The notes beneath the pieces were generated by a model, which saw only the letters and a list, made by a program, of their open reading frames with translations, made no database searches and had not been told where the DNA came from. From an uncultured virus (IMG/VR IMGVR_UViG_3300043438_001628) (lineage: Duplodnaviria; Heunggongvirae; Uroviricota; Caudoviricetes), in the IMG/VR virus record IMGVR_UViG_3300043438_001628: a DNA stretch of 20,000 bases; one strand, given 5' to 3'. Positions 1,420-18,445 of this stretch are shown piece by piece (position 1 is the first letter of the stretch; each line of letters opens with the position of its first letter). The position numbers and the translations under genes are program-made.

Positions 1420-1420
1420 T

Positions 1421-1426
1421 TAAATA
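1421..1426 (+). promoter_or_regulatory. Putative late-promoter core TAAATA
   Basis: 7 nt before ATG 1434, which supports 1434 over the TTG at 1416 as the start. Confidence 0.55.
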
Positions 1427-1433
1427 TTTGACA

Positions 1434-3248
1434 ATGAGCAATAAAGATACATTGGAGTATAATCTTCCACAAACAGCGTATGTTAATTTCGATGCTGTTT
1501 CTTTAAAAAATTTCATAATACAAAGATTAAACGAAAATTCAACATTCACTGATCAAAATTACGAAGGAAGTAATATATCATTCCTTATTGAAATTTTAGC
1601 GTATTACACGCATGTTTTAATGTTTTATTTGAATCAAAACAGTTCAGAATCTTTATTTGATCAATCTTCGATTTATGAAAACATGAATCGCATAGTTAAG
1701 CTTATTGGATATAAACCAACAGGTCAGCAAACATCAATAGTTCCAGTAAATTGTGTAGCGGCGGCTGATTTAGCTATCGGAAGCTATATGATTAGAAAAT
1801 ATAGTTATATTTTGGTTGATAGTATCCAATACACTGTATTAAATGATACAATTTTCGAAAAAACCACAAATTCTGAAGAAATAATACAATCCATCAATGA
1901 TAATTTGATATTGTATCAAGGAACTGTTGAAGAATACCCATCTTACATCGCTGAAGGTATCGGATTTGAAACTTTACCAGTGGTGGTGGATAATTTAGTG
2001 GATGCATCTACTTCTAAATTCATATCTGATGGTACATTGAGTGTCTATGTAAAGGAAACCAACAATAATACTTGGTATGAGTATAAGGAGATCGACACAT
2101 TATACCTATCCAAGCCAACTGATAGATTTTACGAAGTTCGCTTGAATGAAAGCGGAAATTATGAAATTAAATTTGGAAATGATACATTCGGAAAACAATT
2201 AGCCATCGGTGATGAGGTTAAAGTAATGTATATCCTGAGCGATGGAAATAAAGGAATCATAAGCAAAAATGCTATAAATGGGAATAAGCTGTTTACTTAT
2301 TTTACAAACACATTCAATCAAATATATGAAGATACAACAGCTTCAAATTCTCAAATCATAACAACCACACTGAGTTCTCTGTTGACATTTTCAAATCCTT
2401 TAAACTCTACCACTATAAGTGAAGCTGAAAGTGTGGAATCTATAAAAAACAATGCTCCTTATCTGATAGCAGCTCAATATAGATTAGTCACTGAAGAAGA
2501 TTACGAAAAATTCATTCTAAAAAGCCTCCCCAACATTCTAAACTCAGTTAAGGTGGTTGATAATGATAGATTTTTAGGAGAATATATCGACTATTACTAT
2601 AGAATATGTGTAGATCCCAATAAAGTCAACCGAGTTTTAATTAACCAAGTAAATTTTGCAGATTCTTGCGATTTTAACAATGTTAATATTTTCTGCGTTC
2701 CTAAATTTGATGTTCTTAGAGATGCAAGTTATCCCAATTATCTAAGTGAGTCATTTAAAAATCTTATAATAGATCTGACCAGAGGTAAAAAGATGATATC
2801 AAGTGAGATAGTCGCCAGAGATCCAATATATACAGCATTCGATGTCGGATTTAGTACATCATCAACAGCATTTTCGATTGTTTCAAACTCTAGAATAGTC
2901 GTTGTTCGAGATAAAAACAATAAAATTAATAAATCAACACTTAAAACTAAAGTGAATGATTTTATATTAGATTTTTTCAAGCCATCTAATAACACACTTG
3001 GACAAACTCTCAATTTATCAGATTTAACTGCTAATATCTTAGGAATTGATGGAATTTCATCAATTAGAACCGAAAACACATTAGAAAATACATTCTTCAA
3101 TGGATTATCATTCTTATCGTGGAATCCTGTATATGCAGACAGTGATAATGATCTTGTCAATCAGACAACTACATTACCATTTTATAAATTTCCATATTTT
3201 TATTCTCCTCAGTCTCTTATAAATAAAATAGAAATAATCGATGCCTGA
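1434..3248 (+). CDS. gp6: Baseplate wedge subunit, T4 gp6-like
   Basis: gp6 hallmarks: FTDQNYEGSNISFLIEILAYYTH, KLIGYKP, YEIKFGNDTFGK, YILSDGNKG, ESVESIKNNAP...QYRLVTEEDY. About 604 aa from ATG 1434. Confidence 0.9.
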   Translation: MSNKDTLEYNLPQTAYVNFDAVSLKNFIIQRLNENSTFTDQNYEGSNISFLIEILAYYTHVLMFYLNQNSSESLFDQSSIYENMNRIVKLIGYKPTGQQTSIVPVNCVAAADLAIGSYMIRKYSYILVDSIQYTVLNDTIFEKTTNSEEIIQSINDNLILYQGTVEEYPSYIAEGIGFETLPVVVDNLVDASTSKFISDGTLSVYVKETNNNTWYEYKEIDTLYLSKPTDRFYEVRLNESGNYEIKFGNDTFGKQLAIGDEVKVMYILSDGNKGIISKNAINGNKLFTYFTNTFNQIYEDTTASNSQIITTTLSSLLTFSNPLNSTTISEAESVESIKNNAPYLIAAQYRLVTEEDYEKFILKSLPNILNSVKVVDNDRFLGEYIDYYYRICVDPNKVNRVLINQVNFADSCDFNNVNIFCVPKFDVLRDASYPNYLSESFKNLIIDLTRGKKMISSEIVARDPIYTAFDVGFSTSSTAFSIVSNSRIVVVRDKNNKINKSTLKTKVNDFILDFFKPSNNTLGQTLNLSDLTANILGIDGISSIRTENTLENTFFNGLSFLSWNPVYADSDNDLVNQTTTLPFYKFPYFYSPQSLINKIEIIDA

Positions 3249-5367
3249 TTTAAAAACAACATACACAACATTCAATGTTTTAGATTATAAGAACGAACAA
3301 GTATTAAGTTCTTATAGTTTAGAACAAACACCATTTAAATTTGTTCCAGATTTGGATCTGTTTGCAAATAAGGATGTTGTGTGGTCATTTGGCGATGGAA
3401 CCATATCAAAATCGATAACTGCTACGAAATATTACACATTTCCGGGTGTGTATACTGTTAATTTATTAGTATATGATTGTCAAAACAATGCTTTGATATC
3501 TTCATACTCACAAAATGTTGAAATTAAAGATTATATCCCATACACTTTAAAGTTTACAAACCTATCTTCGAATAAAGGTTATGTAGAATTAAAAGAATCC
3601 GTTATACATGGACCTTGGGTTTTAAACGCCACTTATCCATGGCATCAGCCAATTACAGATATAGTATATGATGTATCTGGATCATCGAGTCTTAATTATT
3701 TCAGTGTGAATTCTAATAAGTTCACACATCTACAAAAGACATATTCCATATTTGATAGTACATATAATTACGCTATTGCGAATACTCAGTATTATGAAGT
3801 TCCTAAAATCACAATAAGTAATCCTGTTAAACTATATGCTAAAATATCTGGCAATTCTATAGTTTTATGCTCTGAAAACGATAACGGTTCCTTTTTTGTT
3901 GGAACATCAGCTGAGAAAGCGGTATATTATAAAGATGATTCAGTTGGAAATACAGCTATTTCTTTTAAATTCAACAGCGATTTCACCAACATAGATGGGA
4001 AAACTGTGAATTATGTGAATAATTTAGGAGTTATGTTGAGCGCTAACATAATCCAAAACAATGATGCATCAAGACTTACAATAACATCAAACGGGTTAGA
4101 TGGTGAGAAAACAGCAATCACTTCATTTGATATATATCACACTAAATTCACATCAAGCGAAATTCCATTCGTAGTTAAAATTAAAGATAGTCAATTTCAC
4201 TCTCTGAAAAATTTTAATCCAATTGAATTAAACAATCTCACAATATCAGTATTATCAGCAGAATATCTAACCACCGAATCTGGTGACATTCTATTAACAG
4301 AATCTAATATTCCAATCATAGCAGGTGCAACACCTATAAATTCAAGCTACTTCACAGTATCATCATTGAATTATACTATAGATGACATTGATCATAATGG
4401 ATCTTTTAGAGGTTATGTCAAATTTAATTCATTAAGTACAACACTAACTGATGTATTTTTATCATGTGGCGCTGTGTTGCAGAACAATTATCTATCATCA
4501 TTCAACTTAGCAACAGAATCCACTCTGTTTAATGTGTTGCCTAGAAATTTATATGACATATATAAAGTAAACGAAAACTTCAATGCGGCTGAGACACTTA
4601 ATAATCTAGCGTTTCAAGAGAGAATTAAAGATAATCCAGTATTGTTTAATGATTTCTTAGCTGCTATTTTTGGATCTGATGAATATGATCATGACTCTAT
4701 AGGGGTTAAAACATACGAAAAAATAGCAAACTTTATTCAAAACAATACAGACATAGACACTAAAAATATAAGAGCTTTAATTTCTGATATTAATTTAGTG
4801 GATAATGAAGAATTGGTTTTCAATAGAACACCGATAAAATATCCTGAAAATATCGAACGCATTGCTAACTTAGCATCTATAAGTTTAAACAAACTTGTAG
4901 GGACGACTAATAAATTTAAACAAAATTTCAACAGCCGTGGAGATACTCAAAAAGATAAGTACGGTAAAAATATAGGTAATCAAATTGATACATTGAATTA
5001 TGTCATAACCGCTGGAGCCCCCATAGCGGCTCTTGAAAAATTCAGCAACACATACACTCTACTGAACACATATCAGCCGCTGTGTGCCGGTTCTGGGTCT
5101 CAATTTACCCTGTCTGGATATAATAGTAATTGGGGTTGGCCATTGGTTCTTCCAACGCAATTCACTCCTCTCGATTTCGAAAAGTATTATATCTTTTTCG
5201 AATATATCGATGTGAATGATGGAACTATAATCGACAATGTTATTGATTTCACAAATCCGAACACAACAATATCGTCAGATTCTCCAACATCTGAATATTT
5301 CTTTGGAAATTCTGGAATATTTAATACTATGTTCTTGGATTCGCTCTATCAATCCTTGTCAATATGA
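3241..5367 (+). CDS. Putative baseplate protein with N-terminal PKD (Ig-like) domain, at the gp7 position (708 aa)
   Basis: WSFGDGT...ATKYYTFPGVYTVNLLV is a PKD signature. Overlaps the gp6 stop. The gp7-like role is inferred only from gene order. Confidence 0.7.
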   Translation: MPDLKTTYTTFNVLDYKNEQVLSSYSLEQTPFKFVPDLDLFANKDVVWSFGDGTISKSITATKYYTFPGVYTVNLLVYDCQNNALISSYSQNVEIKDYIPYTLKFTNLSSNKGYVELKESVIHGPWVLNATYPWHQPITDIVYDVSGSSSLNYFSVNSNKFTHLQKTYSIFDSTYNYAIANTQYYEVPKITISNPVKLYAKISGNSIVLCSENDNGSFFVGTSAEKAVYYKDDSVGNTAISFKFNSDFTNIDGKTVNYVNNLGVMLSANIIQNNDASRLTITSNGLDGEKTAITSFDIYHTKFTSSEIPFVVKIKDSQFHSLKNFNPIELNNLTISVLSAEYLTTESGDILLTESNIPIIAGATPINSSYFTVSSLNYTIDDIDHNGSFRGYVKFNSLSTTLTDVFLSCGAVLQNNYLSSFNLATESTLFNVLPRNLYDIYKVNENFNAAETLNNLAFQERIKDNPVLFNDFLAAIFGSDEYDHDSIGVKTYEKIANFIQNNTDIDTKNIRALISDINLVDNEELVFNRTPIKYPENIERIANLASISLNKLVGTTNKFKQNFNSRGDTQKDKYGKNIGNQIDTLNYVITAGAPIAALEKFSNTYTLLNTYQPLCAGSGSQFTLSGYNSNWGWPLVLPTQFTPLDFEKYYIFFEYIDVNDGTIIDNVIDFTNPNTTISSDSPTSEYFFGNSGIFNTMFLDSLYQSLSI

Positions 5368-5387
5368 AGTAAGTAACGTTCGATAAT

Positions 5388-5393
5388 TAAATA
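5388..5393 (+). promoter_or_regulatory. Putative late-promoter core TAAATA
   Basis: Intergenic, 6 nt before ATG 5400, inside a short inverted repeat GATAAT-TAAAT-ATTATC (5382-5398). Confidence 0.6.
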
Positions 5394-5399
5394 TTATCA

Positions 5400-8111
5400 A
5401 TGTCATCAATTCTGCAATACGGGTACCCTGAAATACCGAAGAGCGTAACAAATCCAAATGTATTAGAAGTAAATGCGTTGGATGTCGGTTCTCCGATGTC
5501 ATTTTTACTTTTCATTAAAACTATATCGGTAAGTTTCGAACCTGAAATATTACAAGCGTATTATAATGAATATATAAAGCGTTGGAATACTAAAAAGAAA
5601 AATAGCGACTCTGTAAATTCCAACATGATAATTGAGAAATATCGTGATTTTATACGCGATATCAATATTAAATACACAACTCTCGAAGAACGAGACTTCT
5701 TACAGAAGTTAAACTTCAATGATCGATACGATTTGGATACTGTATTGGGTTTCTATAGTAAGAAATTGCTGGAAATATCGCAATATTACAATACAAAAAG
5801 AGATGATGTAAAGTATGAGATAACTAGAAAGAAATTAAAAGGCAGCAATCTAGGTTTAGAGAAAACTGTTTTAGAAAAAACAATTGAATTTTTAGAAAAT
5901 CAAGAATATGGATTGATCGAATATGATATTGATGACATCAAATCCAAAATAAAAATCGATATTCAAGAACTATACAATTCATACGGATTATACTTCGATC
6001 AGAAACCAGATATCAAAATATATGACTACAAGGATTTAGATTTCGGGCAGGATATATTTTTAAGAAATGATGATGATCTAATCGCCAGTGTTTTCAGTGG
6101 AGTGTCTGATGAAATTAAAACTTTAAAAGAAGCAGATCAGTTATTTGAAAATAAGAGAAAATTAACTCGCAAGAGTGTGAGTAGTAATTTTTATTACATA
6201 TCAACTGGATCTACATCAACCGACTTCGTTTCCGGTAAATTATTCGATGCTACAAATTCATCTAAGAATATATTAAACAGAAACAATCCAACAACAGCGT
6301 CCACCATAAAGGGAGGTTTGTTAACAAAGGAAAATGTAGGTTTCTTCAAACCAAGTAAAACAGGGATTGTATTTATCGATGGTAAAAATGAATCATTTTC
6401 CATTAATATAGATGCATTACAGCCGAATTCATTGTATTATTTCCCAGATCCTAATATATTCGGAAGCAATGGTGAAATTTTAACATTTTTCGTCGATGGC
6501 GAGTATTTAAAACGAAATGCATCATCATCAGAAGCTGTAAATCAACCAATCTCAAATAAAAATGATACCAAGTATTATGGATATGCAACACTGAAAACGG
6601 ATGAATTTGATCAAAGCTTTGAATCAATATTCGATTCAGGATATATAGCGGATCAAAAGAGTGATGTATTTGGAAATAGATTTGGATTATTTAAACTTGA
6701 CGATTCTTTCAAATCCACAATTCAAGTCAAAACTCCAAACAATATAAAGAGTTTGCTGCTGAATGGTTATAAATTCTTTGATGATTTATATGGTGAGGGG
6801 TATAATTTTAATTATACTATAGCTGATAGTACATCATACACTGAAACATTAAGATCTGGTATATCTTCAAATACGAATTCATTTTCATCAACTGCCGGGG
6901 CTTGGAACTTGTTTTTTAGAAACTTCACGCCTTATCAAGAGTTGATAAGCCCAACTGAAAGTTCAATAACACCTTCATTTAAAATACGAGATGGTGCAAT
7001 CTTCATGAAGAATGATGTTGAGTTTTTAAGCGATCCAAGCAGTTCAGATCTCAACGCCTTTCCGGGAGCGAGTGTGTACTATTACAACACACTGTTTGAT
7101 GCTGGTATATACACCGCTTCTCCAATTCAGAGAGCGCTGAAAGACACATCATTTCCAGCAAATACTGCCAATTTCCTACAATCAGTTAGACCATTATCTG
7201 GCAACGATGTTTTGAATGTTGATGGAGGTAAATTCACCACAGAATTTGTATATAATTACACATTCGATGAAGTTGATTATGCTTATATCAACGATTCATC
7301 AAATGCGACATCATTTGTAATTGATGATATAACAGATAGCAATTATAATGATAGGTTAGATTTAAATGGTCAGATATTTGTAAAAAATATAAACTATAAT
7401 TCAACGAGGCCGCTCTTAACAGAATTTTCATACTTGAGTTCAAAGTATAATGGCAGCGTAGTTGCTCAATTATCAAGTATTTCAAAATTTGAAATAGCAT
7501 ATAACACGATATCTATCGAAACCGATAATTATTTGATATTTGAAAAAATAAGATATGAAAATTCAAAATTTATAAATCCAAAAACAGCAGCTTATGTTAT
7601 TGAGCATGACACAACTGATGTAAATAAACTATCAAACAGATTTAAAATAGGAACCGATATATATTATTGTGTATTAAACAGCACAACTCCTTTCATATCA
7701 TCAAATAATTACATAGTATATCCCGAAATATACAAATATGATACATTAACTGATGTAAATTTGAAAATTTTCCCTATAAATGAGACTGACTACACATCAA
7801 ACGAAGATTTTTTCAATGTATCTGGAAATAATGTAAGATTTGATAAAATTGAATCTCCAGTGTTGGTATATACTGACACCAACAAAATATTCAGCATTTC
7901 ATTCTTGGCAAAAGACCAAAATGAAATGATAGCACTTCACGAATATGATTTTATCATCAACCCCGATGTAACATTCTTAAAACATCATGTCTACATGGGC
8001 AGTTTCGATAGTTATTCGAACATAATGTCTTCATCATACAGTTCGTTATCAAACGTTTACTTACAATCAACACCAGCTGCGAATGTAATAAATCAAGAAT
8101 TTATCTTATGA
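5400..8111 (+). CDS. Large hypothetical virion/baseplate protein (903 aa)
   Basis: Long ORF within the baseplate module. The N-terminal ~250 aa look helical and the rest beta-rich. No family recognised. Confidence 0.7.
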   Translation: MSSILQYGYPEIPKSVTNPNVLEVNALDVGSPMSFLLFIKTISVSFEPEILQAYYNEYIKRWNTKKKNSDSVNSNMIIEKYRDFIRDINIKYTTLEERDFLQKLNFNDRYDLDTVLGFYSKKLLEISQYYNTKRDDVKYEITRKKLKGSNLGLEKTVLEKTIEFLENQEYGLIEYDIDDIKSKIKIDIQELYNSYGLYFDQKPDIKIYDYKDLDFGQDIFLRNDDDLIASVFSGVSDEIKTLKEADQLFENKRKLTRKSVSSNFYYISTGSTSTDFVSGKLFDATNSSKNILNRNNPTTASTIKGGLLTKENVGFFKPSKTGIVFIDGKNESFSINIDALQPNSLYYFPDPNIFGSNGEILTFFVDGEYLKRNASSSEAVNQPISNKNDTKYYGYATLKTDEFDQSFESIFDSGYIADQKSDVFGNRFGLFKLDDSFKSTIQVKTPNNIKSLLLNGYKFFDDLYGEGYNFNYTIADSTSYTETLRSGISSNTNSFSSTAGAWNLFFRNFTPYQELISPTESSITPSFKIRDGAIFMKNDVEFLSDPSSSDLNAFPGASVYYYNTLFDAGIYTASPIQRALKDTSFPANTANFLQSVRPLSGNDVLNVDGGKFTTEFVYNYTFDEVDYAYINDSSNATSFVIDDITDSNYNDRLDLNGQIFVKNINYNSTRPLLTEFSYLSSKYNGSVVAQLSSISKFEIAYNTISIETDNYLIFEKIRYENSKFINPKTAAYVIEHDTTDVNKLSNRFKIGTDIYYCVLNSTTPFISSNNYIVYPEIYKYDTLTDVNLKIFPINETDYTSNEDFFNVSGNNVRFDKIESPVLVYTDTNKIFSISFLAKDQNEMIALHEYDFIINPDVTFLKHHVYMGSFDSYSNIMSSSYSSLSNVYLQSTPAANVINQEFIL

Positions 8112-8617
8112 ATACTAAAACACTGTATTTTTCAACATCTGCGACAGCACTGTCTTCTACTTTACCAGAAGTTAAATTAACTGACTTAACTTCTGTGACG
8201 GTAACGCTGAGTGGTATATCTGAAACCCAAGCTCCATTATTTTTAACTATTAATTGGGGAGATGGCGAAATTGTAAGATATCAAAGCTCATTTACAAAGG
8301 ATTATAGAGTCGATAGCATAATTCCAGAAATATTATACAATAAATTCAGTTCATTATTGGCAAATGACCAAGTTCACATATATTACCCATCGATTTCGGC
8401 AAGATACAAAAAACTATCAGCTGAAATCAATATCGAGTATATAAATGGCGATATATGTTCACTTATACAACCCATAAATATAATAACATCTGATTATTTT
8501 GAAAGTATAGGCGACATGAAACACATTTATACAAATATATTGCAACTATCTGGGAATAACAAACAATTCTTGTTTTCCGTTGACAAAGGTGGCTTCTTAA
8601 TTGAGTCTGAATCTTAA
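8108..8617 (+). CDS. Hypothetical structural protein with PKD/Ig-like motif (169 aa)
   Basis: LTINWGDG...HIY motif. ATGA overlap with the upstream gene. Confidence 0.65.
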   Translation: MNTKTLYFSTSATALSSTLPEVKLTDLTSVTVTLSGISETQAPLFLTINWGDGEIVRYQSSFTKDYRVDSIIPEILYNKFSSLLANDQVHIYYPSISARYKKLSAEINIEYINGDICSLIQPINIITSDYFESIGDMKHIYTNILQLSGNNKQFLFSVDKGGFLIESES

Positions 8618-8620
8618 ATA
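8615..8620 (+). promoter_or_regulatory. Putative late-promoter core TAAATA, overlapping the upstream stop codon
   Basis: The TAA stop at 8615-8617 forms the first half of the motif, which lies 6 nt before ATG 8627. Confidence 0.55.
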
Positions 8621-8626
8621 TTTTAA

Positions 8627-10843
8627 ATGGAAACTGTTATTAAATCATTATCATCGTTGACTTCTAAAATATGGAAGTCAAACATGGATAACACATCGTA
8701 TAAACAGGTTAAGCGAACTTACCAAGACGGGTTCTCTTTTAATTTTCCATTCGCTTTATCGGGATTCAACGATTTTAAAACGAAAGAATACTCCAACTTA
8801 TATCTAACCACAAATATGCAGGCGTCTTGGTTCATGGATTTAGATGATTCAACTATATCTGCTCCAAAATTGATGACATACTTACAAAGTGGGTCGTTGT
8901 ATTTATCTAGACCAAATCCTTCAAGCACAACATTCGACAGCTTTGCCATCAAATTCGACGAAGAACTAAGTGACAACACATATTTTGATATTGAATTTCA
9001 CATACCTAATTTATGCACAGTTTCATTCGTGGATTCTGGCAAGAAATACTTTTTAGCAAATGATGCAGGCTCTTTGAAATTTATTTGGGATGTTCATTTA
9101 CCAACAGCGATAAACGCAGCCAATCCGCAGTATTTTAAGTGTGTTTATAACGACAAAAAAGAGTTATATCTGATTAAAGACATAAATGGGAATAATAACT
9201 TAGTTAAAAAGACTGATGATACATTAACTTTCGTCGAACTGAGTGCAGGTAATAAAACTCTAATACTGAACAACTACTTCAAAGTATCTAGAAATAATGA
9301 GTATATCTTAAACAGAACACCCAACAGCTCTTTTATAACATATTTAAATAATTCAAATGATATAGATTATTCTAAAAGTGTTTTTGATCTTAATAATAAC
9401 TTTTTAATACATTCTCCATATTCATCTGAATACAAAGATGTAATAGTTCTCAAAAATCAACTGAGCGTGAATGAAACATTCACAAACGCTCAGAATTTAC
9501 TATCATCCGGTTATGATATCGCAGTTGATAATTTCAGAAACTATACCAGTATAACATCCCCAATAGATTCTGAAAATTCTTCTGAAATCAATTTAAATTA
9601 TGTGTTTTATAACAAACCTTATGTTATAAGACAGGGAATTACAGAATTTGATGCTCCATCCAGCATGTATCCATTTTCAAATTTGAATATTAATGATAGT
9701 AGGTTCATCGACGCTGGAGCATACGCATTCGATACTCCTCTATATGCAGACAAAGTGTTTCAATTAAACACAAATAACTATGCAAATGACGGAAAAACAT
9801 ACTTATGCACTTGGTTATCTGGATCAAACTCCAATAAAGTATGGGTTGATAGATATTATTACCCGGATTTAATATCAAAACGAGCAGCACTTTCACAAAA
9901 ATGCGTATTCGATATAACTTACGAGCAAGCTATTGAAAAACTAATAGCCACTAACAGTTCATTGAGTTCAACAATCGCAAAAACTGCAATTTTTGATAAA
10001 AGAAGCGATTTAAGCTTTAAACCTAATCAAAAATACACATATCACAGATTTGACAACAGTGCAATATTCGAAACTATATCAGCAACTAATACAGTAGCGT
10101 GTGGTGTGAATATAGTGCCTTACAATTATCAATCACTGATCAACGATTCTGGTAAAGTAACCATATCGTTTTATTTCAAAGGAGACGATCCTGAATGGAC
10201 AATCCAAAGTCTTCGAAATAACATAGACGCAGGTGTTAAAATCACAAAAACATTCGATCAACTATATTTTGAATATAAATTATTCGACAATTCAAATAAT
10301 CAAACCTTGATTTTCTCCACAACTACATCATATAAAAAATATAAAGACAACTTTATATGCTTCAGCTATGATGCATTGACAGGAATTGGATTCTTTTTCT
10401 TAAACAATCAAAAAATTCTGGATATAAACACGGTAATCGGTCAATTTTCAAATAAAACTCTATTATATGGAAAGTTGTATTATAATGACCAAGATATTTT
10501 CACAGTGAATGCTATAACTTCTGATATTTTCATATCTGATGAAAAAATAGATGAAAATTTAGCATTCATATTGCCTTTTATTCAAAATAGACAGACTGTT
10601 GATGATATAACAATAACGCTTCCTTGTGGAATGCGTAATTCAATTGATGATATCACATACCTACAAATGATATGCAACAACAACACGAATAAGAGTAATT
10701 TTATAAATATTTCGATTGATAATATAGGAATAAGCAATCCTGATACTTTAAAAGATCTAGAATCTACTATGTTGGATAAACTTAAACGCCATATCCCAGC
10801 AACTTCCACTATAAATAAAATAAAATTCACAAACTATATATGA
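8627..10843 (+). CDS. Large hypothetical virion protein with possible LamG/concanavalin-A-like domain (738 aa)
   Basis: The segment VTISFYFK...NFICFSYDALTGIGFFFLNNQKI resembles the LamG pattern FTISxWxK...HxxxxYDxxxGxxxxYxNG. Baseplate context. Confidence 0.65.
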   Translation: METVIKSLSSLTSKIWKSNMDNTSYKQVKRTYQDGFSFNFPFALSGFNDFKTKEYSNLYLTTNMQASWFMDLDDSTISAPKLMTYLQSGSLYLSRPNPSSTTFDSFAIKFDEELSDNTYFDIEFHIPNLCTVSFVDSGKKYFLANDAGSLKFIWDVHLPTAINAANPQYFKCVYNDKKELYLIKDINGNNNLVKKTDDTLTFVELSAGNKTLILNNYFKVSRNNEYILNRTPNSSFITYLNNSNDIDYSKSVFDLNNNFLIHSPYSSEYKDVIVLKNQLSVNETFTNAQNLLSSGYDIAVDNFRNYTSITSPIDSENSSEINLNYVFYNKPYVIRQGITEFDAPSSMYPFSNLNINDSRFIDAGAYAFDTPLYADKVFQLNTNNYANDGKTYLCTWLSGSNSNKVWVDRYYYPDLISKRAALSQKCVFDITYEQAIEKLIATNSSLSSTIAKTAIFDKRSDLSFKPNQKYTYHRFDNSAIFETISATNTVACGVNIVPYNYQSLINDSGKVTISFYFKGDDPEWTIQSLRNNIDAGVKITKTFDQLYFEYKLFDNSNNQTLIFSTTTSYKKYKDNFICFSYDALTGIGFFFLNNQKILDINTVIGQFSNKTLLYGKLYYNDQDIFTVNAITSDIFISDEKIDENLAFILPFIQNRQTVDDITITLPCGMRNSIDDITYLQMICNNNTNKSNFINISIDNIGISNPDTLKDLESTMLDKLKRHIPATSTINKIKFTNYI

Positions 10844-12549
10844 TTTCTTATTTCAAATACGATAATGGAAATGCATTCACCATCGACGGAGTGCCATATT
10901 CTGGATATTTCCATGTTTTGAATGGATCTGCATTCTCTGGAAAGAAACCGCTGGGCGATTCTCGTCAATTATCAGCTAATGGTAATTTTTTAAGTGATTT
11001 ATTCATAAGTAAAGCGGTTTTTGATGGCGTTACGCCGAGTATCGATTTAGCTATACCGAATGCGCTGGATATTTTAAACGATAACACATTAACTGAATTA
11101 TTAACTAGAGTTGATGATAATAATTTAAAAATATACCAAAATAGTATATTTATAAATCCAAATAACCTACCATACGACTATAAAAATACATATTTTTACA
11201 CATTAACATCAACGGAAGCTGATATCAGAACTCCTGATGATTTAATGTATGGTAAAAATGTATATACCCACAGTGATCCATTCAGTTATTCCGAAGAATG
11301 GGCATTTTTGGATAGAGTCACCACTGGATCTTTTATAGTTGATAAAGATGATAATTTCATATATTATTGCGTAGCAGATAACATTACATATACTTTAAGC
11401 GGAACTTTCAACGATCCATCTAAAAAATTAGCAGTGATATCACAATCACCTATAACAGATAATCTAAAAATAGAACAAGATTATGACACTAATGAGTTAT
11501 TCTTTTATAAAGAAGATTCATTATCAATATACGACTTATCAAAATATGAAGATTGCAATAATCTATTCTTAAAAGATCAAATATCACTTTCAGCGACTTC
11601 AGAAACCATACCATACTATGCAATGGGATATAATAAACGAAGCGAATATGTGAATGATGTCATTTATATAAAAAATAAATATTCCAACGAGATATTTTTA
11701 ACACTGCCGCTGTATCAACTCAACTTGGATCAATTAATAGGGATAGATATAAGAAAAGAGGATGACAATATCATCATCGTCGGTAAAAAAGACGAAAAGA
11801 CTTACTTTATATTTTTTGATAGTGATAATTACACCGAAACTTTCAGATATGAGGAATTATTATATTCTGAAAATACCACTGCTATTAAATTTTCGGATGA
11901 AGATTCGGATTTCTTCTACTTGATAAAGTCTATAGATAAAATAGACGCATCCGCTGAAGAAAGACCGGATACTGAAATTCGATCATTGCTGAATATCAAC
12001 AATCGATTGTCTAAAACTAGATCATCTAACTTTTTCTATATAAGTGACTATCTTTTCAATACAACTGAAGAAAAAATTAACACTATTCAAATAAAATTCA
12101 ATTCAAATCGAATGAAATCGAATAGTTATAACAACTTGACATATACAACACTGCAAAAGAACGGTTATTTGTATTTCATTATGCATAATATAGGGCGTTT
12201 ATATGTTTCAAAAACTAAAACTTCACTATATCAAAATTTTGTACCTCTAAATTTAGATAAAAAATTCGAGAAATTCAATTGTAATTACAGCAGTTTAGGA
12301 TTATCTTTTAATTCCGCAATTCTAAACTTAATCAGAGATACTTTAAACATAGCAACCGCTGTTGAAAAGGTTAAAACATCAATGGGCGATCTAGCTAATC
12401 CTCTAGATTCGCTCATTCCAACTCCCGAATTACAATTTCAGCTAGAAAATCTATTTTTAAACGGAAACGAAACTATTAATGTTGTTTCTTTACAGCGAAT
12501 ATTCACTATCATAAATGATCTACAAAAGAAATTAGTGCATTTATCTTGA
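10840..12549 (+). CDS. Hypothetical virion protein (569 aa), beta-rich centre and helical C-terminus
   Basis: ATGA overlap with the upstream gene and structural-module context. No family recognised with confidence. Confidence 0.65.
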   Translation: MISYFKYDNGNAFTIDGVPYSGYFHVLNGSAFSGKKPLGDSRQLSANGNFLSDLFISKAVFDGVTPSIDLAIPNALDILNDNTLTELLTRVDDNNLKIYQNSIFINPNNLPYDYKNTYFYTLTSTEADIRTPDDLMYGKNVYTHSDPFSYSEEWAFLDRVTTGSFIVDKDDNFIYYCVADNITYTLSGTFNDPSKKLAVISQSPITDNLKIEQDYDTNELFFYKEDSLSIYDLSKYEDCNNLFLKDQISLSATSETIPYYAMGYNKRSEYVNDVIYIKNKYSNEIFLTLPLYQLNLDQLIGIDIRKEDDNIIIVGKKDEKTYFIFFDSDNYTETFRYEELLYSENTTAIKFSDEDSDFFYLIKSIDKIDASAEERPDTEIRSLLNINNRLSKTRSSNFFYISDYLFNTTEEKINTIQIKFNSNRMKSNSYNNLTYTTLQKNGYLYFIMHNIGRLYVSKTKTSLYQNFVPLNLDKKFEKFNCNYSSLGLSFNSAILNLIRDTLNIATAVEKVKTSMGDLANPLDSLIPTPELQFQLENLFLNGNETINVVSLQRIFTIINDLQKKLVHLS

Positions 12550-12566
12550 AAAGCGTTTTTTAAGCA

Positions 12567-12572
12567 TAAATA
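12567..12572 (+). promoter_or_regulatory. Putative late-promoter core TAAATA
   Basis: Intergenic CATAAATA, 6 nt before ATG 12579. Confidence 0.6.
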
Positions 12573-12578
12573 CAACTA

Positions 12579-13256
12579 ATGAAATCATTTACTGATCAGT
12601 TTATATCTGATTTATATGGATCTATGTTACATGTTGAAACTCCATCATTGACAGGGGTTGATGTAGTGTATGATGGACTCGGCAATGCATCGTCCTTATC
12701 AGTGGGATTATCAGGAGAAGGCGCTAGAATAACAGGAGCGCTGACAAGTGGCAATGTAGTGTATCCTACTTACCCATCTTTGATTAATTTCATTGATTAC
12801 ATTTATCCAATCGGCTCTTGTTTGCTATCTCTAGACAACGCAAACCCATCAATTAGATTATTAGGCACAGTTTGGACGCAAGTCGGTCAAGGTCGTGTAA
12901 TCACTGGCGTAGGAACTGGAACAGACAGCAACGGTGTGGCAAGAACTGTGACATCTGGAAACAATAGCGGCGGTCTTTATCAACAAACACTTTCAGCATC
13001 CAATATACCTGACCACTTTCACTATATAGCAAATACCGTTTCAGATCACAGCACCGATAAAGATTTACTGACTCCTGATAATTATATGGCTCTTGGCGGT
13101 CGGGCAGCAGCAAGCAATTATGCATATGAATTAGAGGGAAACTCTCTAATCCCCACAGTAGGCAAAACATCTGGATTAATCGGAGCAAATCAAACATCAC
13201 CAGTCACAACAACAAACCCAACATACGGAGTGTATATTTGGACTAGAATTTCATAA
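12579..13256 (+). CDS. Baseplate/tail protein with T4 gp10 C-terminal-like domain (225 aa)
   Basis: YIYPIGS...ANPSIRLLGTVWTQVGQGRVITGVG...TLSASNIPDHFH...NPTYGVYIWTRIS matches the YPIGS / W...G.GRV..G / HxH / P...VY.W.R pattern of that domain. Confidence 0.8.
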   Translation: MKSFTDQFISDLYGSMLHVETPSLTGVDVVYDGLGNASSLSVGLSGEGARITGALTSGNVVYPTYPSLINFIDYIYPIGSCLLSLDNANPSIRLLGTVWTQVGQGRVITGVGTGTDSNGVARTVTSGNNSGGLYQQTLSASNIPDHFHYIANTVSDHSTDKDLLTPDNYMALGGRAAASNYAYELEGNSLIPTVGKTSGLIGANQTSPVTTTNPTYGVYIWTRIS

Positions 13257-13258
13257 TT

Positions 13259-14317
13259 ATGGCAGACATCTCAATTATAAAACTTAAAGTTAGACGAGGA
13301 ACCGATTCCCAGCGTCAAAGAATAATATTAGATCAGGGTGAATTAGGATTCACCACTGATACACAACGACTTTTCATCGGAAATGGCAGTTTATCAGGTG
13401 GAGTGGTCGCTGGTAATATCACACATCCATTTTCAGAAACTTCAGGAAGTCGAATTAATTTAAGCAATGCCGTTCGAGGTGATATTGTAAATGAAAATGG
13501 ATTTTTATATCAGCTATCTGGTGCAAACTACAATCAATTATCAGCGTGGGTATTTATAGGATCTAAACCCGACAATTCATCCATTGAGTATAATGACAAT
13601 AGAGAACTCCAGATTAAAAACAACGGAATAGGAGCTACTAAATTTGCAGCAAACGCCGCATACAACATGGGTGGATTGGTAGCCACTCCAACAAATGGAT
13701 TGTCTGCGAATGTGGATGGAATTACATTAACTGTAACTTCAACTAATCAGTTATCAGTATTTAGAATCACCCAAAATCAAATACAATCATCAGCACTTGG
13801 AGATGGATTAACTGGTGGAAGTGGATCTCCGTTAAAATTAAATATCGGAACTGGATTAGGATTCAGCAGCGGTGTTCTTACATTAACAGGAGCATCTACG
13901 AATTCAGTAGGCGCAAGTGCTATAAGCCAAGACGCAATCGGGTCTGGTTTGTCATTGAGTGCTGGTAAATTAATTGCTGATATCAGAACAGTCAACATAT
14001 CAGCATTTTCATTGAATTCTGGTCAATTAAACTTGTTAGCTAGAACTGCTGCATCGCCTAAATTTGCAAATATCTCATACAACGATAATGGTATTATCAC
14101 TGGATATACATCAACAATAACACAAACATTCACAGGAGCTGAATCTACATCATCCCCGCTGTCGGTGTTCAATGGTCATATATCTCAAACCGTATATACC
14201 AATCAGAGCATTTTTAATGTTCTTTCGGGGACATCCGCAATATCATTATCATCAGCTGGATTTGCGGTTATAGATACAGCACTTGGCCAATTCGCTATCC
14301 CGATGTTTAAATTCTAA
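13259..14317 (+). CDS. Tail fibre protein 1 with Mtd-N/hyaluronidase-N-type anchor domain (352 aa)
   Basis: KLKVRRGT...LDQGELGFTTDTQRLFIGNG N-terminus, followed by a Gly/Ser-rich shaft with GDGL/GTGL/GSGL repeats. Confidence 0.8.
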   Translation: MADISIIKLKVRRGTDSQRQRIILDQGELGFTTDTQRLFIGNGSLSGGVVAGNITHPFSETSGSRINLSNAVRGDIVNENGFLYQLSGANYNQLSAWVFIGSKPDNSSIEYNDNRELQIKNNGIGATKFAANAAYNMGGLVATPTNGLSANVDGITLTVTSTNQLSVFRITQNQIQSSALGDGLTGGSGSPLKLNIGTGLGFSSGVLTLTGASTNSVGASAISQDAIGSGLSLSAGKLIADIRTVNISAFSLNSGQLNLLARTAASPKFANISYNDNGIITGYTSTITQTFTGAESTSSPLSVFNGHISQTVYTNQSIFNVLSGTSAISLSSAGFAVIDTALGQFAIPMFKF

Positions 14318-14320
14318 ATA
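14315..14320 (+). promoter_or_regulatory. Putative late-promoter core TAAATA, overlapping the upstream stop codon
   Basis: 10 nt before ATG 14331, a longer spacing than the others. Confidence 0.4.
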
Positions 14321-14330
14321 TTTATAATAT

Positions 14331-15851
14331 ATGTCAAATTCAATTGAAATTTTCCAAAACACTCTATTAAAGCTTATCGTGAGACAGGGGGAAGACTCTG
14401 ATCGGAAGCTAATTTTATTAGATACCGGCGAATTGGGTTATGCTACTGATACAAAGCGACTTTTTATAGGAGATGGAGAAACCACGGGCGGAAACGCTGT
14501 TGGAAATAAATATCTAGGAGATGGTGTTCCGACTTCAGTTGGTTCAGCTGCTCAAATTGGTGATTTAGTGTTTGATCCAACTGCTAAAATACTGTATAAA
14601 TTCAATGGTGGTGTATATGACAATCCAGCTAATTGGCTAGCTGTGGGAGCGATATACAGCGCGGGAGAATCATTACAATTCCAAAGCTCAAACAACACCA
14701 TATCATTGAGCAGCAGCATTTCGGTGGATAGAGTAACGCAGCGTAGCAGTGCATATCTAAATTTACCGGAAAAAACATCATTAAATTCCGTAAACTACAA
14801 TTGGCCAATCGGCGGATTGCAAAATAATCTATTCTTAGGAACTGACGCCTTCGGAAATTTAAGCTGGAAGACTCCACTACCACTGAACACCTATTATGTA
14901 GCTAATTCAGCTAGTAGAATTCCAGTGGGTATGATCACGCCATTCGTATCCGGGGGAGATATACCGTATGGATGGTTGTTGTGCAATGGTCAGCCTGTTC
15001 TCGGAGCAACATATCCAGTATTGTCAGCAGCTATAGGAACCAGATACGGTGGCAGCGGTGGATCTTTTAATTTGCCCGACTTCACAAACAGAACACTGTA
15101 TGGTGTTGTTACTGATCCAGCAACATCAACAACTTTCCGTTTAGCGAGTGGTACCACTATTGGATTAAGTGCGGTTGGAACTAATTTTATCATCAAAGCA
15201 ATTCCTGATAATATCGTTACATCAACTATTACAGTACTAAGTTCGTTATCCGCCACTGTTGGCGGAATCAACATAACAGGCACAGCAGTGACTACACTGA
15301 CTGGAAATATTGAAATTGGGTTAGCTCCTATTATATCACCTGTAGAAATCCAAACACCGTTTAATATTGATCAATATGGTCGTGTAAGTTCAGTTCCTGT
15401 GACAAATGCTGGAATAATTGCTGGGACTGTAATTAATCCTTCAAGTTACATAAAATTTCTAACAACACCAATTAAAGTAATAGATATAACAGACAATTTC
15501 ACATTTAAAGATAATATAACAGTATTCCCGATTATTCCCGGAATACCTGCAAATGCAAAAACTGTAATCTTGGATTCTTATATCTCAAATACCAACAACG
15601 ATCAATATGTTATTGTTTGTGCATCTTATGATAAATCAAATTTACATTCGATTACAGGCGATGATGTTGTAGGAACCGCAGAATACTTAGTGAGCAGAAT
15701 TAGATCAGCTGATTATGGAGCTGGCGTTGTCGCAAATCAATGCATGATACCTCTCAGTTCAAATGGTGTGACATCATCTTTCGGACTAAGAGTAGCTGCT
15801 GAAAATGTATGGGATAATGGCTTCGTTCGTGTAATTGGATACACCCTATAA
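14331..15851 (+). CDS. Tail fibre protein 2 with Mtd-N-type anchor and phage tail-collar domain (506 aa)
   Basis: N-terminus KLIVRQGE...LDTGELGYATDTKRLFIGDG. Collar motif IPVGMITPF...IPYGWLLCNGQ...YPVLSAAIGTRYGG...FNLPDF...NFIIKA. Confidence 0.88.
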   Translation: MSNSIEIFQNTLLKLIVRQGEDSDRKLILLDTGELGYATDTKRLFIGDGETTGGNAVGNKYLGDGVPTSVGSAAQIGDLVFDPTAKILYKFNGGVYDNPANWLAVGAIYSAGESLQFQSSNNTISLSSSISVDRVTQRSSAYLNLPEKTSLNSVNYNWPIGGLQNNLFLGTDAFGNLSWKTPLPLNTYYVANSASRIPVGMITPFVSGGDIPYGWLLCNGQPVLGATYPVLSAAIGTRYGGSGGSFNLPDFTNRTLYGVVTDPATSTTFRLASGTTIGLSAVGTNFIIKAIPDNIVTSTITVLSSLSATVGGINITGTAVTTLTGNIEIGLAPIISPVEIQTPFNIDQYGRVSSVPVTNAGIIAGTVINPSSYIKFLTTPIKVIDITDNFTFKDNITVFPIIPGIPANAKTVILDSYISNTNNDQYVIVCASYDKSNLHSITGDDVVGTAEYLVSRIRSADYGAGVVANQCMIPLSSNGVTSSFGLRVAAENVWDNGFVRVIGYTL

Positions 15852-15857
15852 TGAAAT

Positions 15858-16529
15858 ATGAGCTTCCCATCCGATGTCAGATTACCAAGTAATGCAAAAT
15901 ATGTAGCATTCGTCGATGATAAAAAAGAGTTTAATCCAAATTATGATATTATTTGGAGCTTTCAATATGCTATAACGGGAACAGAAGCTGGATTTTCCAC
16001 CTTTTTAACCTCGAAAACTCCAGATTTAACGGCTATTCCGGGTCATTACCTTGGATACAGTGGAAATATGCAAACTGGCGGTATATGCATAGCATTTGAT
16101 ACAACTGGATTGTTTGCGTTATCTTCCAGTACTAGAAAAGGAGTCGGATTAAATAGCATAAAGAGAAACAGCATCATTATCAGAGATAATAATGACAATA
16201 TCACACTGTATGAATCTTTATCAAATTTAAATTCGACATTTTTTATAACAGCGTCGTCTAAATCATATAAAACTATGAGATTTAGATACACAAACACTAA
16301 TAAAATTGGAATAGACTTTAAATTAGATAACAGCAGTGCGTATACTGAACTAACTTCGATAACTTTAGAGTCTAATCCTGAAAATTTAAGTGATTTAGTT
16401 CCGGGATTTGCATTTTCATCTCCCGTTTCGTCTTTGAATACTCCGGGAGGTTTATTTTTGAAAAATTTCCACACACAAGGAACTGATTCAACTGAGACTG
16501 TAGAAATTTTACCGTTTACTAGAATTTAA
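15858..16529 (+). CDS. Legume (L-type) lectin/ConA-like fold protein (223 aa)
   Basis: WSFQYAI...AGFSTFL...GHYLGYSG...ICIAFDT...PGFAFSS parallels the L-lectin pattern F.F.I...DGfaF.L...LGY...vAvEFDT...vGFsasT. Confidence 0.6.
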   Translation: MSFPSDVRLPSNAKYVAFVDDKKEFNPNYDIIWSFQYAITGTEAGFSTFLTSKTPDLTAIPGHYLGYSGNMQTGGICIAFDTTGLFALSSSTRKGVGLNSIKRNSIIIRDNNDNITLYESLSNLNSTFFITASSKSYKTMRFRYTNTNKIGIDFKLDNSSAYTELTSITLESNPENLSDLVPGFAFSSPVSSLNTPGGLFLKNFHTQGTDSTETVEILPFTRI

Positions 16530-16531
16530 TT

Positions 16532-16954
16532 ATGGCTGATGAAAGTAGCACAAGTTCAACTACGGAAACGAGTTCGAGTACTAGTAGTACATCAAGCAGC
16601 ACTAGTACATCAAGCAGTACTAGTACATCAACTAGCACAACAGCTGGACCAAATCCACCAATTCCAGTATCTACAACATGTTATCCATGTTTAAGTTGCC
16701 CTGATTTGATCATAGAAACACCTCCGACGCCTATATCATTAACAACTAAATCTCCATCAGGTAATAATACACTCCCACCAATCGTTAAAGTCGTAGTGCC
16801 AGTATCATTCCCGCTTTCGAACCCGGACAATATAGCATCCACAACGGAGACAACAGCCACGACAACACAGACAACACAGACTCCGACTACGGAAACTTCG
16901 TCTAGTTCAATACAACCATGCAAAGATAAAAAGTGTAATATATTAGGATATTAA
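16532..16954 (+). CDS. Mucin-like Ser/Thr/Pro-rich protein A (140 aa)
   Basis: N-terminal S/T tract, CYPCLSC motif, LPPIVKVVVP, second Thr tract, C-terminal CKDKKCNILGY. Third codon positions vary within the S/T tracts. No signal peptide or TM segment evident. Confidence 0.8.
   Translation: MADESSTSSTTETSSSTSSTSSSTSTSSSTSTSTSTTAGPNPPIPVSTTCYPCLSCPDLIIETPPTPISLTTKSPSGNNTLPPIVKVVVPVSFPLSNPDNIASTTETTATTTQTTQTPTTETSSSSIQPCKDKKCNILGY
16585..16631 (+). repeat. 18-bp tandem repeat (TAGTACATCAAGCAGYAC, about 2.6 copies) encoding STSSST
   Basis: Copies at 16585-16602, 16603-16620 and a partial copy at 16621-16631. Confidence 0.85.
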
Positions 16955-16972
16955 AATATCAAAATTTACAGT

Positions 16973-17608
16973 ATGATCAATATATCCCCATTATCAGGAA
17001 CTGATCCTTTGATTGTTAATATAATAGTGTCTCCAGAAACTGGAAACTATTACAATATATACATATTTGACGATTTCGGTGGGGCAATCTATACTCAACT
17101 AGTGTCTTATGTTGAATTATCACACACATTTAATGTTTCACTAATTCCCGGAAACAATTATATATATTGGGAATACAGAAGAATAAGCGATGATTCGTAT
17201 ATAGATACAGCAGATGTTTTCATAACCGTATCGGAATCAACCACAACAACTCCGACTCCAACCTCCACCAGCACATCTACTAGTACATCTACTAGTACAT
17301 CGACAACATCTCCCCCCACTACACCGAGTCCGACAACAGTCCAGCCGAAAATACCATGTTGCCCTCCAAGAGTGCGATACATTTTTCCACCCCCCGTTGA
17401 GAATACTACAAAAAAACCAATTGAATTACCTCCCATCACCAAAGTAGTAATCCCAAGCGCTCAAACCCTCACAGACCCATCCACAATCAGTTCGACTACT
17501 ATAGCACCAACTACGACTCCAACTACAACTAATCAACCCGCTACAACACAGCCGCCAGCTAATACTACATCATGTATTAATACACATTGCAAAAAATTAA
17601 ATTTTTGA
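16973..17608 (+). CDS. Mucin-like Ser/Thr/Pro-rich protein B with N-terminal beta-rich (possibly Ig-like) domain (211 aa)
   Basis: About 87 aa globular N-terminus, then TTTTPTPTSTSTSTS..., PCCPP, LPPITKVVIP, a Thr/Pro tract and C-terminal CINTHCKKLNF. Paralogous to protein A. Confidence 0.8.
   Translation: MINISPLSGTDPLIVNIIVSPETGNYYNIYIFDDFGGAIYTQLVSYVELSHTFNVSLIPGNNYIYWEYRRISDDSYIDTADVFITVSESTTTTPTPTSTSTSTSTSTSTSTTSPPTTPSPTTVQPKIPCCPPRVRYIFPPPVENTTKKPIELPPITKVVIPSAQTLTDPSTISSTTIAPTTTPTTTNQPATTQPPANTTSCINTHCKKLNF
17267..17302 (+). repeat. 12-bp tandem repeat (ACTAGTACATCT, about 3 copies) encoding TSTS
   Basis: ACCAGCACATCT-ACTAGTACATCT-ACTAGTACATCG. Confidence 0.85.
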
Positions 17609-17614
17609 TAAATT

Positions 17615-18445
17615 ATGTCAATGAGAAAACTGACAATTGGGATGGCTGTTCACGATGATATCGACGGATTGTATTTTACAATACAGGCGATAAGAATGTT
17701 TCACAAAGAAGTACTCAATGATATTGAATTTGTAGTAGTTGACAATAATCCATCTGGAAATCACTCCAAGTGTATACGAGACTTTATCGATTGGGTGCAG
17801 GAGCCAATTCAGTATCTACCATTCACCAATTTTAAATCTACTTCTATCAGAAATAAAATTTTTGAATTAGCTGATACTCCGTATGTTATGAGTATCGATA
17901 GCCATGTTCTCATCGAACCCGGTGCAATTAAAAAATTAATTAAATTTTATGACAACAACAAAGATGATGGAAATTTACTACAAGGACCGCTTGTATATGA
18001 TGATCTTAGATCGGTATCTACCCATTTTGATCTTGTGTGGCAATCAAATATGTGGGGGGTGTGGGGTAACGATAAACGCGGTGAAGATCCTGATGGACCA
18101 CCTTTTGAAATACCCGCTCAAGGCTTGGGTTTATTCTCTTGTCGCAAAGATGCGTGGTTAGGATTCAACAAAAACTTTAGAGGATTCGGAGGTGAAGAGG
18201 GCTATATCCATAAAAAATACGAAAAACATGGTAAAAAGACACTATGTTTGCCATTTTTAAGATGGAATCACCGTTTTTACAGACCCGCTGGCGTGAGTTA
18301 CCCAAATGAATTGCCGCAAAGAGTTAAAAATTATTTGATCGGATTCCATGAATTGGGGTTAGACACGACAGAACTTAAGAATCACTTCAAAGATTCTGTT
18401 GGATCTTCTAAAATAGAAGAACTTGAAAGAGAATTACTCAACTAA
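17615..18445 (+). CDS. GT-A fold glycosyltransferase (GT2-like) with polypeptide GalNAc/GlcNAc-transferase-type motifs
   Basis: LTIGMAVHDD, IEFVVVDNN, RN, YVMSIDSH (D95-x-H97), GLGLFS, FGGEE (191-195), WNHRF (H219). The start could instead be ATG 17621. Confidence 0.9.
   Translation: MSMRKLTIGMAVHDDIDGLYFTIQAIRMFHKEVLNDIEFVVVDNNPSGNHSKCIRDFIDWVQEPIQYLPFTNFKSTSIRNKIFELADTPYVMSIDSHVLIEPGAIKKLIKFYDNNKDDGNLLQGPLVYDDLRSVSTHFDLVWQSNMWGVWGNDKRGEDPDGPPFEIPAQGLGLFSCRKDAWLGFNKNFRGFGGEEGYIHKKYEKHGKKTLCLPFLRWNHRFYRPAGVSYPNELPQRVKNYLIGFHELGLDTTELKNHFKDSVGSSKIEELERELLN

Follow-up and report, generated by a model that had tools for sequence, protein, structure and literature searches.

The present analysis concerns a glycosyltransferase (GT) gene and the two genes directly upstream of it in a 20,000-nucleotide (nt) stretch of DNA, hereafter the window, from an uncultured virus of the class Caudoviricetes (IMG/VR record IMGVR_UViG_3300043438_001628). 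An initial annotation, made from the letters alone, had ascribed to the GT the catalytic signature of the polypeptide glycosyltransferase families GT27 and GT60. Our analysis supported the view that the predicted fold and the DxH motif of the GT resemble those of polypeptide O-glycosyltransferases of GT27 and GT60 rather than those of ordinary GT2 enzymes with a DxD motif, and the gene context points to a polypeptide acceptor. The genes and motifs concerned are listed below, with lengths in amino acids (aa) and residues numbered along the translated open reading frame (ORF).

16532..16954, plus strand: probable acceptor protein 2, 140 aa; 80% Ser+Thr in its best 40-aa window; C-terminal motif
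16973..17608, plus strand: probable acceptor protein 1, 211 aa; 75% Ser+Thr in its best 40-aa window; C-terminal motif
17615..18445, plus strand: GT gene (ORF and translation, 276 aa); Pfam PF00535; closest folds GT27
17897..17905, plus strand: D95-S96-H97, DxH replacing DxD; putative divalent-cation ligands (position by script; conservation in 135 sequences)
18122..18139, plus strand: GLGLFS, residues 170–175; putative GT-A G-loop (position by script; conservation)
18185..18199, plus strand: FGGEE, residues 191–195; putative equivalent of xED at the start of the alpha-F helix
18269..18271, plus strand: H219 within W-x-H-R-F; putative C-terminal His (C-His), the third metal ligand

All motif coordinates in the initial annotation were reproduced by script, namely IDSH (residues 94–97, nt 17894–17905) with D95-S-H97, GLGLFS, FGGEE, LPFLRWNHRF (residues 212–221), SYP (residues 228–230), and H219. 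The spacing of 25 residues between E194 and H219 was likewise correct, and we rate it as weak evidence. The true start of the GT is probably the ATG at 17621, giving 274 aa, because its relatives begin at MRKL, which corresponds to residue 3 of the 276-aa ORF. No transmembrane segment was found in the GT (maximum Kyte-Doolittle mean over 19 residues, 0.9), no signal was visible, and Pfam detected no lectin domain, which bears out the earlier description of a soluble enzyme with neither a membrane anchor nor a ricin domain. These properties fit a cytoplasmic modification preceding assembly.

Homology searches recovered 2713 GT homologues (E ≤ 0.001) among 3082 candidates from a 90%-clustered collection, and 1717 representatives at the same threshold from a 50%-clustered library. 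Conservation was assessed in an alignment of 135 sequences with 44–84% identity, comprising 27 phage proteins (65–84%) and 108 representatives (44–57%). D95, H97, and H219 were invariant (135/135), as were F191, W217, and R220, and near-complete conservation was observed for G170 and E195 (134/135 each), G172 (133/135), and E194 (132/135). Each element of the GT-A core set, DSH (residues 95–97), GLG (170–172), GEE (193–195), and H219, was conserved in at least 97% of the sequences. The assignment of these segments to GT-A motifs rests on their order, spacing, and secondary structure rather than on residue-level superposition.

As a control, regions rich in GT genes were taken from two complete genomes of related phages, and their ORFs of at least 180 aa were compared in MAFFT columns, which are approximate. 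The orthologues of the GT in both genomes carried DSH, whereas all 13 other GT-like ORFs had Asp at the column of H97 (EDD, DAD, DTD, DDD, and so on). Because H97 is invariant in the alignment and Asp occupies its column in the other GT-like ORFs, DxH is, at the level of sequence, a fixed and specific character of this GT family that has not drifted from DxD, in agreement with the initial claim that the motif is not an ordinary DxD.

The GT-A core consists of the DxD motif, the G-loop, the xED motif, and the C-terminal His (Taujale et al., 2020; PMC7185993). According to that study, DxH takes the place of DxD exclusively in GT27 and GT60, and the metal is ligated by the C-His in GT27 and GT8. 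The study also places GT27, GT60, GT7, and GT2-CHS (K4CP) in one clade, with GT60 as the neighbor of GT27 in the GT-A tree, and describes the Asp of xED, where the alpha-F helix begins, as the catalytic base in inverting GT-A enzymes. Since the G-loop, xED, and C-His of this scheme, to which GLGLFS, FGGEE, and H219 respectively correspond, are generic, only DxH is discriminating. The signature originally proposed is thereby narrowed: DxH and the predicted fold agree with GT27/GT60, and the remaining segments are those of GT-A enzymes at large. In the model, E195 would stand in place of the catalytic-base Asp of xED.

The initial annotation had also quoted D224, H226, and H359 of human GALNT2 as Mn ligands, with E334 in WGGE. 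The position E334 requires W331 to be the W of WGGE, which we assume to be so. The other three numbers are implied by an offset of 28 from the snail enzyme, for which PMC6994419 gives His254 and His387 among the Mn ligands and equates Asp252 with human Asp224 and W359 with human W331. The corresponding ligands of Toxoplasma GalNAc-T3 (TgGalNAc-T3) are Asp276-Ser277-His278 and His414 (PMC11074326).

An AlphaFold2 (AF2) model of the GT built from the 135-sequence alignment reached a predicted local distance difference test score (pLDDT) of 97.5 and a predicted template modeling score (pTM) of 0.93. It superseded an earlier AF2 model from 27 close relatives, which had a pLDDT of 73.8, rendered just the FGGEE and H219 regions poorly, and yielded a Foldseek list in which GT27 was mixed with TarS, TarP, and RmlT. 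The final model comprises one GT-A domain with three helices after it at the C-terminus, and a helix spanning residues 197–204 follows FGGEE.

Foldseek ranks 1–47 among the matches listed were all polypeptide GalNAc-transferases (ppGalNAc-Ts), with E-values from 8.5e-13 to 3.2e-10 and query-normalized template modeling (TM) scores of 0.65–0.76. An unbiased VIA-align search of 48,161 representative chains placed mouse GalNAc-T1 at the top (Z 22.9; root mean square deviation [rmsd] 3.2 Å over 259 of 276 residues) and Toxoplasma GalNAc-T3 second (Z 22.0), followed by K4CP (19.2), RmlT (18.6), WrtF (18.0), B4GALNT1 (17.9), and TarS (17.6), and at lower scores by SpsA (16.7), TarP (16.4), and SunS (12.7). 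When the best 998 chains from Foldseek were re-ranked by VIA-align, entries 1–29 were all GT27 (Z 20.4–24.4), with rmsd values of 2.7–3.5 Å over 244–262 of 276 residues and 12–16% identity. The first entry outside GT27 was the K4CP chondroitin polymerase (Z 19.5). The GALNT structures, with which comparison had been proposed initially, thus came first by both methods. The aligned ranges, residues 1–276 of the model and 133–410 of GalNAc-T2, are compatible, as ranges rather than residue-level pairs, with D95, H97, and H219 lying on D224, H226, and H359.

The order of the structural ranking matches the clade of GT27, GT60, GT7, and GT2-CHS in PMC7185993. Neighbors in BFVD were annotated as "Glycosyltransferase, GlcNAc," several of them being uncultured Caudovirales proteins (E 5e-10 to 4e-8; query-normalized TM scores 0.53–0.64). 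We take this to be the name of a GT60-type family in Pfam/InterPro, and GT60-like enzymes may exist in phages too.

By sequence, the GT matched PF00535 (Glycos_transf_2) over residues 29–137 with 38.9 bits against a gathering cut-off of 23.3 (E 1.1e-9), and PF00535 was matched in all 27 close relatives. Glyco_tranf_2_2 was matched below the Pfam threshold, NCBIfam gave only weak, sub-threshold matches of the GT2 type, and PHROGs contained no family for the GT. Searches of all PDB sequences with phmmer and with the first family profile (A1) returned nothing at E ≤ 10. The second family profile (A2) matched TarP (5.2e-6), TarS, K4CP (0.028), and DPMS, and these matches were confined to the N-terminal nucleotide-binding half, where the DSH of the family lies opposite their DSD. 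The Pfam model PF02709 (Glyco_transf_7C), which presumably covers the GalNAc-T motif of GT27, was present in 20–82% of the members of some ESM Atlas feature neighbors of the GT.

We next describe the genes upstream of the GT. The product of 16973..17608 (protein 1) consists of an N-terminal domain, a Thr/Ser-rich run, a core of the form CCPP...PPI, a second, Thr/Pro-rich run, and the terminus ...CINTHCKKLNF-stop, and its stop codon lies 6 nt before the ATG of the GT ORF. The product of 16532..16954 (protein 2) has a Ser/Thr-rich N-terminus, the same core, and the terminus ...CKDKKCNILGY-stop. It is a paralogue, with 36% identity to the C-terminal 100 aa of protein 1 in an alignment of C-terminal modules. 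Protein 1 matched no Pfam or PHROG family, and an ESM Atlas search with its 211 aa returned nothing usable (best score 0.77). Prediction of a complex between the GT and the last 100 aa of its upstream neighbor scored 0.00, which is no answer and counts as evidence neither way.

This arrangement recurred across viral contigs. Among 474 pattern matches in IMG/VR, 361 encoded a GT relative, and 80 loci were kept. Upstream sequence of 500 nt or more was available for 53 distinct GT loci. In 34 of these, an adjacent upstream gene on the same strand reached 60% Ser+Thr or more within 40 aa, compared with only 3 of 521 other genes of the same loci; a few further Ser/Thr-rich neighbors were masked by shadow ORFs in the greedy gene call. 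Of the 55 distinct loci whose upstream sequence was 200 nt or longer, 47 had an ORF with the terminus C-x(2-7)-C-x-x-L-x-[F/Y] that ended no more than 60 nt from the GT start. Among 2038 ORFs of 60 aa or longer, 79 carried a stricter form of this C-terminal motif, all of them on the strand of the GT and sometimes two or three in tandem.

The partner proteins ranged from 60 to approximately 1300 aa and combined a variable N-terminal domain, unrelated among partners, with Thr/Ser/Pro runs, a Pro-rich core often starting with CC-x-P, a second poly-Thr run, and the C-terminal motif. Both Cys residues and the Leu of that motif were invariant in 43 C-terminal modules (for example ...CNKLGF). In most loci, 9–14 nt separated the GT from its same-strand partner, and the pairing was retained down to approximately 60% GT identity. 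The conservation of Thr/Ser-rich upstream genes argues for a polypeptide acceptor independently of the motif and the fold. Judged from the gene pair, the combination by which virion-protein glycosylation systems are recognized, a phage-encoded GT linked to a structural-type gene with a Ser/Thr-rich segment, is present here. The C-terminal Cys motif may serve in virion docking, as a disulfide clasp, or as a recognition tag for the GT.

Relatives of the GT were also encoded in bacterial genomes, in 489 of 551 pattern matches, at approximately 50% identity and across many phyla. Most of them were fusions of 500–1300 aa. Among the 94 multidomain bacterial representatives scanned, 16 contained a PqqD domain and 18 a GT25 domain, and other fused domains were FucT_N/GT10, GT6, sulfotransferase, methyltransferase, HPr_kinase_C, and TPR. 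We regard the PqqD domain as a peptide-binding recognition element of the kind used for ribosomally synthesized and post-translationally modified peptides (RiPPs), and its fusion to the GT domain provides independent support for a polypeptide acceptor. The domain content suggests that the fusions with PqqD, GT25, FucT, and GT6 are whole assembly lines for peptide O-glycans, of which no description was found in the literature searched. A gene with at least 55% Ser+Thr lay within 5 kb in 16 of 79 bacterial loci, and a small poly-Thr ORF lay directly upstream on the same strand in 7 of 79, several of these ORFs having a conserved leader-like N-terminus.

A leader-like sequence, R-R-x-x-L...LPxKWxKPVVxxVxLPAHA, was common to small ORFs of six bacterial loci (L098:3656-4258, L105:3420-4022, L106:3088-3561, L110:2096-2419, L139:2978-3796, and L144:3237-3911). 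All but that of L110 lay directly upstream of GT fusions. Most ended in poly-Thr tails, and the ORF of L106 had a Ser/Thr run followed by a non-Thr tail. On the strength of these sequence features, the six small ORFs are candidate leader-bearing substrates.

In the window, the plus-strand region 934..16529 encodes T4-like baseplate and tail-fiber proteins recognized by Pfam and PHROG, including gp25-like and gp6-like proteins, a PKD domain, a gp10 C-terminal domain, and two Mtd_N (major tropism determinant N-terminal) domains, and the GT is the last gene of this plus-strand run. The gp6-like protein was 23–27% identical to homologues from cultured cyano-, pelagi-, and rhizobiophages. Among 50,697 GenBank phage records, no relative was detected for the GT (tblastn, E 1e-5) or for the window (tblastn/megablast). 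The Mtd_N proteins (13259–14317 and 14331–15851, plus strand), the second of which also has a tail-collar domain, are probably receptor-binding fibers. Between the tail-collar protein and the acceptor pair lies a 223-aa ORF (15858–16529, plus strand) with no Pfam or PHROG match. Two minus-strand ORFs (18438–18677 and 18688–19185) converge on the GT; the first overlaps its last 8 nt, and the second had a weak match of the Cys-rich GFA type (E 0.0026). Scans for promoter and terminator consensus sequences and for the T4 late-promoter word TATAAATA found nothing above chance near the GT.

Taken as a whole, the data are best explained by a phage protein O-glycosyltransferase, a soluble single-domain GT-A enzyme with a predicted site formed by DxH and the C-His, acting on the Thr/Ser-rich proteins encoded upstream; we assign this explanation a probability of roughly 60%. 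In the infected cell, D95, H97, and H219 of the enzyme would coordinate a divalent cation, by way of which the nucleotide sugar would be bound, and E194 and E195 at the head of the alpha-F helix would contact the sugar or serve as the base. The sugar would then be passed to Thr/Ser hydroxyls in the Thr/Ser/Pro-rich linkers of one to three proteins encoded upstream, which in the window would be the products of 16532–16954 and 16973–17608. The position of these genes at the end of the baseplate/fiber operon suggests that their products are probably virion appendages that would become coated with sugar.

Several observations weigh against this explanation. By sequence, the GT classifies as GT2, and no GT27 chain was detected at E-values up to 10 with phmmer and the two profiles against all PDB. 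PF02709 had no match in the GT at E up to 10 and one among the 27 close relatives (E 0.1), and PF11397, which we take to be the Pfam model of GT60, was matched neither by the GT nor by the 27 relatives at E up to 10; in both cases, the filters of HMMER drop weak matches. The margin in Z by which GT27 exceeds other GT-A enzymes is moderate, at approximately 3–5 units. The residue after GGE is Glu here and, by our assumption, Asn in GT27; for this reason, a retaining mechanism is not to be assumed, and the GT may be inverting. The motif-bearing neighbor is missing in 8 of 55 phage loci, and 63 of 79 bacterial loci have no Ser/Thr-rich neighbor at the 55% threshold within 5 kb. Moreover, related phage genomes contain two to seven further PF00535 matches each, so that other glycosylation targets are possible. 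One complete related genome of 202 kb carries eight consecutive same-strand ORFs of 211–275 aa in approximately 5.7 kb (84000–90300), with six PF00535 matches in that stretch, which could extend the glycan or may serve another pathway.

Membership of GT27 or GT60 is unsupported by sequence similarity, and the lectin domain and membrane anchor are absent as well. CAZy families are defined by sequence. Because no sequence-level link to GT27 or GT60 is detectable, calling the GT a relative of the mucin-initiating enzymes, as the initial annotation did, holds in the sense of the same GT-A clade and not of the same family.

The classification as GT2 raises the alternative that the GT is an ordinary GT2-type enzyme that decorates a glycopolymer of the host envelope or a sugar linked to a lipid, in the manner of TarS/TarP, RmlT, or Gtr enzymes and as a means, for instance, of preventing superinfection, and that the Thr-rich genes encode unrelated fiber proteins. 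Pfam returned PF00535 only, the sequence-level PDB matches were limited to the wall-teichoic-acid GTs TarP and TarS together with K4CP and DPMS, TarS, RmlT, and TarP were good structural matches (Z 16–19), and several other GT2 genes occur in the phage genomes of this group. We nevertheless consider this alternative unlikely, given that the GT is the last gene of a structural operon, that it has a motif-bearing neighbor in 47 of 55 loci while only 3 of 521 other genes are Ser/Thr-rich, that it has DxH where other phage GT-like ORFs have Asp, that GT27 ranked first in fold with nearly full-length coverage, that no membrane segment is present, and that bacterial relatives are fused to PqqD domains. 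It is quite unlikely, in our estimate, that the GT modifies proteins but uses other acceptors, such as tail fibers, the capsid, or host proteins, the Thr/Ser-rich genes being merely co-located late accessory genes. The size range of the partners, their unrelated N-terminal domains, and the loci lacking a motif-bearing neighbor would accord with such a role, whereas the tight same-strand pairing down to approximately 60% GT identity, and the fact that the constant parts of the partners are exactly the Thr-rich runs and the C-terminal motif, speak for the upstream proteins as acceptors.

A DNA-modifying GT that coats hypermodified bases with sugar against restriction, as in T4, would be in keeping with a T4-like phage, and phage GTs are often assumed to be directed at DNA (PMC12619734 and PMC12801897). 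This is very improbable here, however: the thymidylate-synthase/dCMP-hydroxymethylase family (PF00303) was found in none of five related genomes, four of them rated 96–100% complete by CheckV, the GT gene is part of the tail operon and not of a replication or nucleotide module, and the GT-A fold is closest to that of polypeptide transferases.

Comparison with known systems further defines the proposed protein O-glycosyltransferase. The best structural matches were GT27 enzymes, for example human GalNAc-T2 (6nqt/4d0t), mouse GalNAc-T1 (8v9q), and Toxoplasma GalNAc-T3 (8ui6). Features shared with GT27 are D-x-H together with a C-terminal His, with the very tripeptide D-S-H that PMC11074326 gives for TgGalNAc-T3, a GGE-containing motif before the alpha-F helix, and a likely acceptor in the form of a Thr/Ser/Pro-rich, mucin-like polypeptide. 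In contrast, the phage GT is only 12–16% identical to these enzymes with no similarity detectable by HMMER, has GGE-E at the position just discussed, and lacks a membrane anchor, a stem, and a ricin-type lectin domain, so that it would be cytoplasmic and not in the Golgi. Some GT60 members are soluble cytoplasmic enzymes. The polypeptide/Skp1 alpha-GlcNAc-transferases of GT60, from protists and prokaryotes, share DxH and have Ser/Thr (or Hyp) polypeptides as acceptors; no solved GT60 structure turned up in our structure searches.

Among GT2-type enzymes, the GalNAc-T domain of K4CP (GT2-CHS; 2z86/2z87) shares the GT-A core and PF00535 and was the best structure outside GT27 (Z 19.2–19.5), and TarP was the best sequence-profile match to the phage GT family (5.2e-6). 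TarP and TarS differ from the phage GT in having DSD in place of DSH. K4CP, TarS, TarP, RmlT, and SpsA have polysaccharide or teichoic-acid acceptors, were aligned over fewer residues (214–249) with higher rmsd, and matched by sequence in the N-terminal half only. The nearest precedent in phage biology is the glycosylation of mycobacteriophage capsid and tail-tube subunits at their C-termini (Freeman et al., 2023, Cell Host Microbe, as cited in PMC12619734), in which phage-encoded GTs glycosylate the structural proteins of the same phage at C-terminal extensions (as cited in PMC12619734 and PMC12801897). Those acceptors belong to the capsid and tail tube of actinobacterial siphoviruses, whereas the acceptors considered here would be dedicated mucin-like proteins of T4-like aquatic myoviruses that end in a Cys motif. 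In the literature searched, we found no account of a phage enzyme that resembles GT27 and is paired with mucin-like proteins.

A broader proposal, which we hold to be possible but doubtful, is that the family is a prokaryotic and viral sister lineage of the GT27/GT60 mucin initiators. It would then represent a minimal cytoplasmic polypeptide Thr/Ser O-glycosyltransferase having a DxH metal site, with dedicated "mini-mucin" appendage partners bearing a C-terminal Cys-x-Cys...L-x-[F/Y] tag in phages and leader-bearing poly-Thr peptides recognized by fused PqqD domains in bacteria, and mucin-type glycosylation would be an ancient invention of bacteria and viruses and not of eukaryotes. The suggestions in the initial annotation that the enzyme could inform the origin of GT27 or serve as a glycoengineering tool are speculation.

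If the proposed function is correct, the GT would offer a prokaryotic and viral out-group for the origins of GT27 and GT60. It would also provide a soluble, lectin-free model of the GT27-like core in 276 aa that should express in bacteria and would be useful for studies of mechanism and possibly for glycoengineering. The GT family is large, with 361 viral contigs in IMG/VR and 2713 protein clusters. Abundant uncultured aquatic T4-like phages would, on this explanation, carry their own mucin-type glycoprotein system, and a sugar coat on the appendages of their virions could influence host recognition, stickiness, stability, or grazing.

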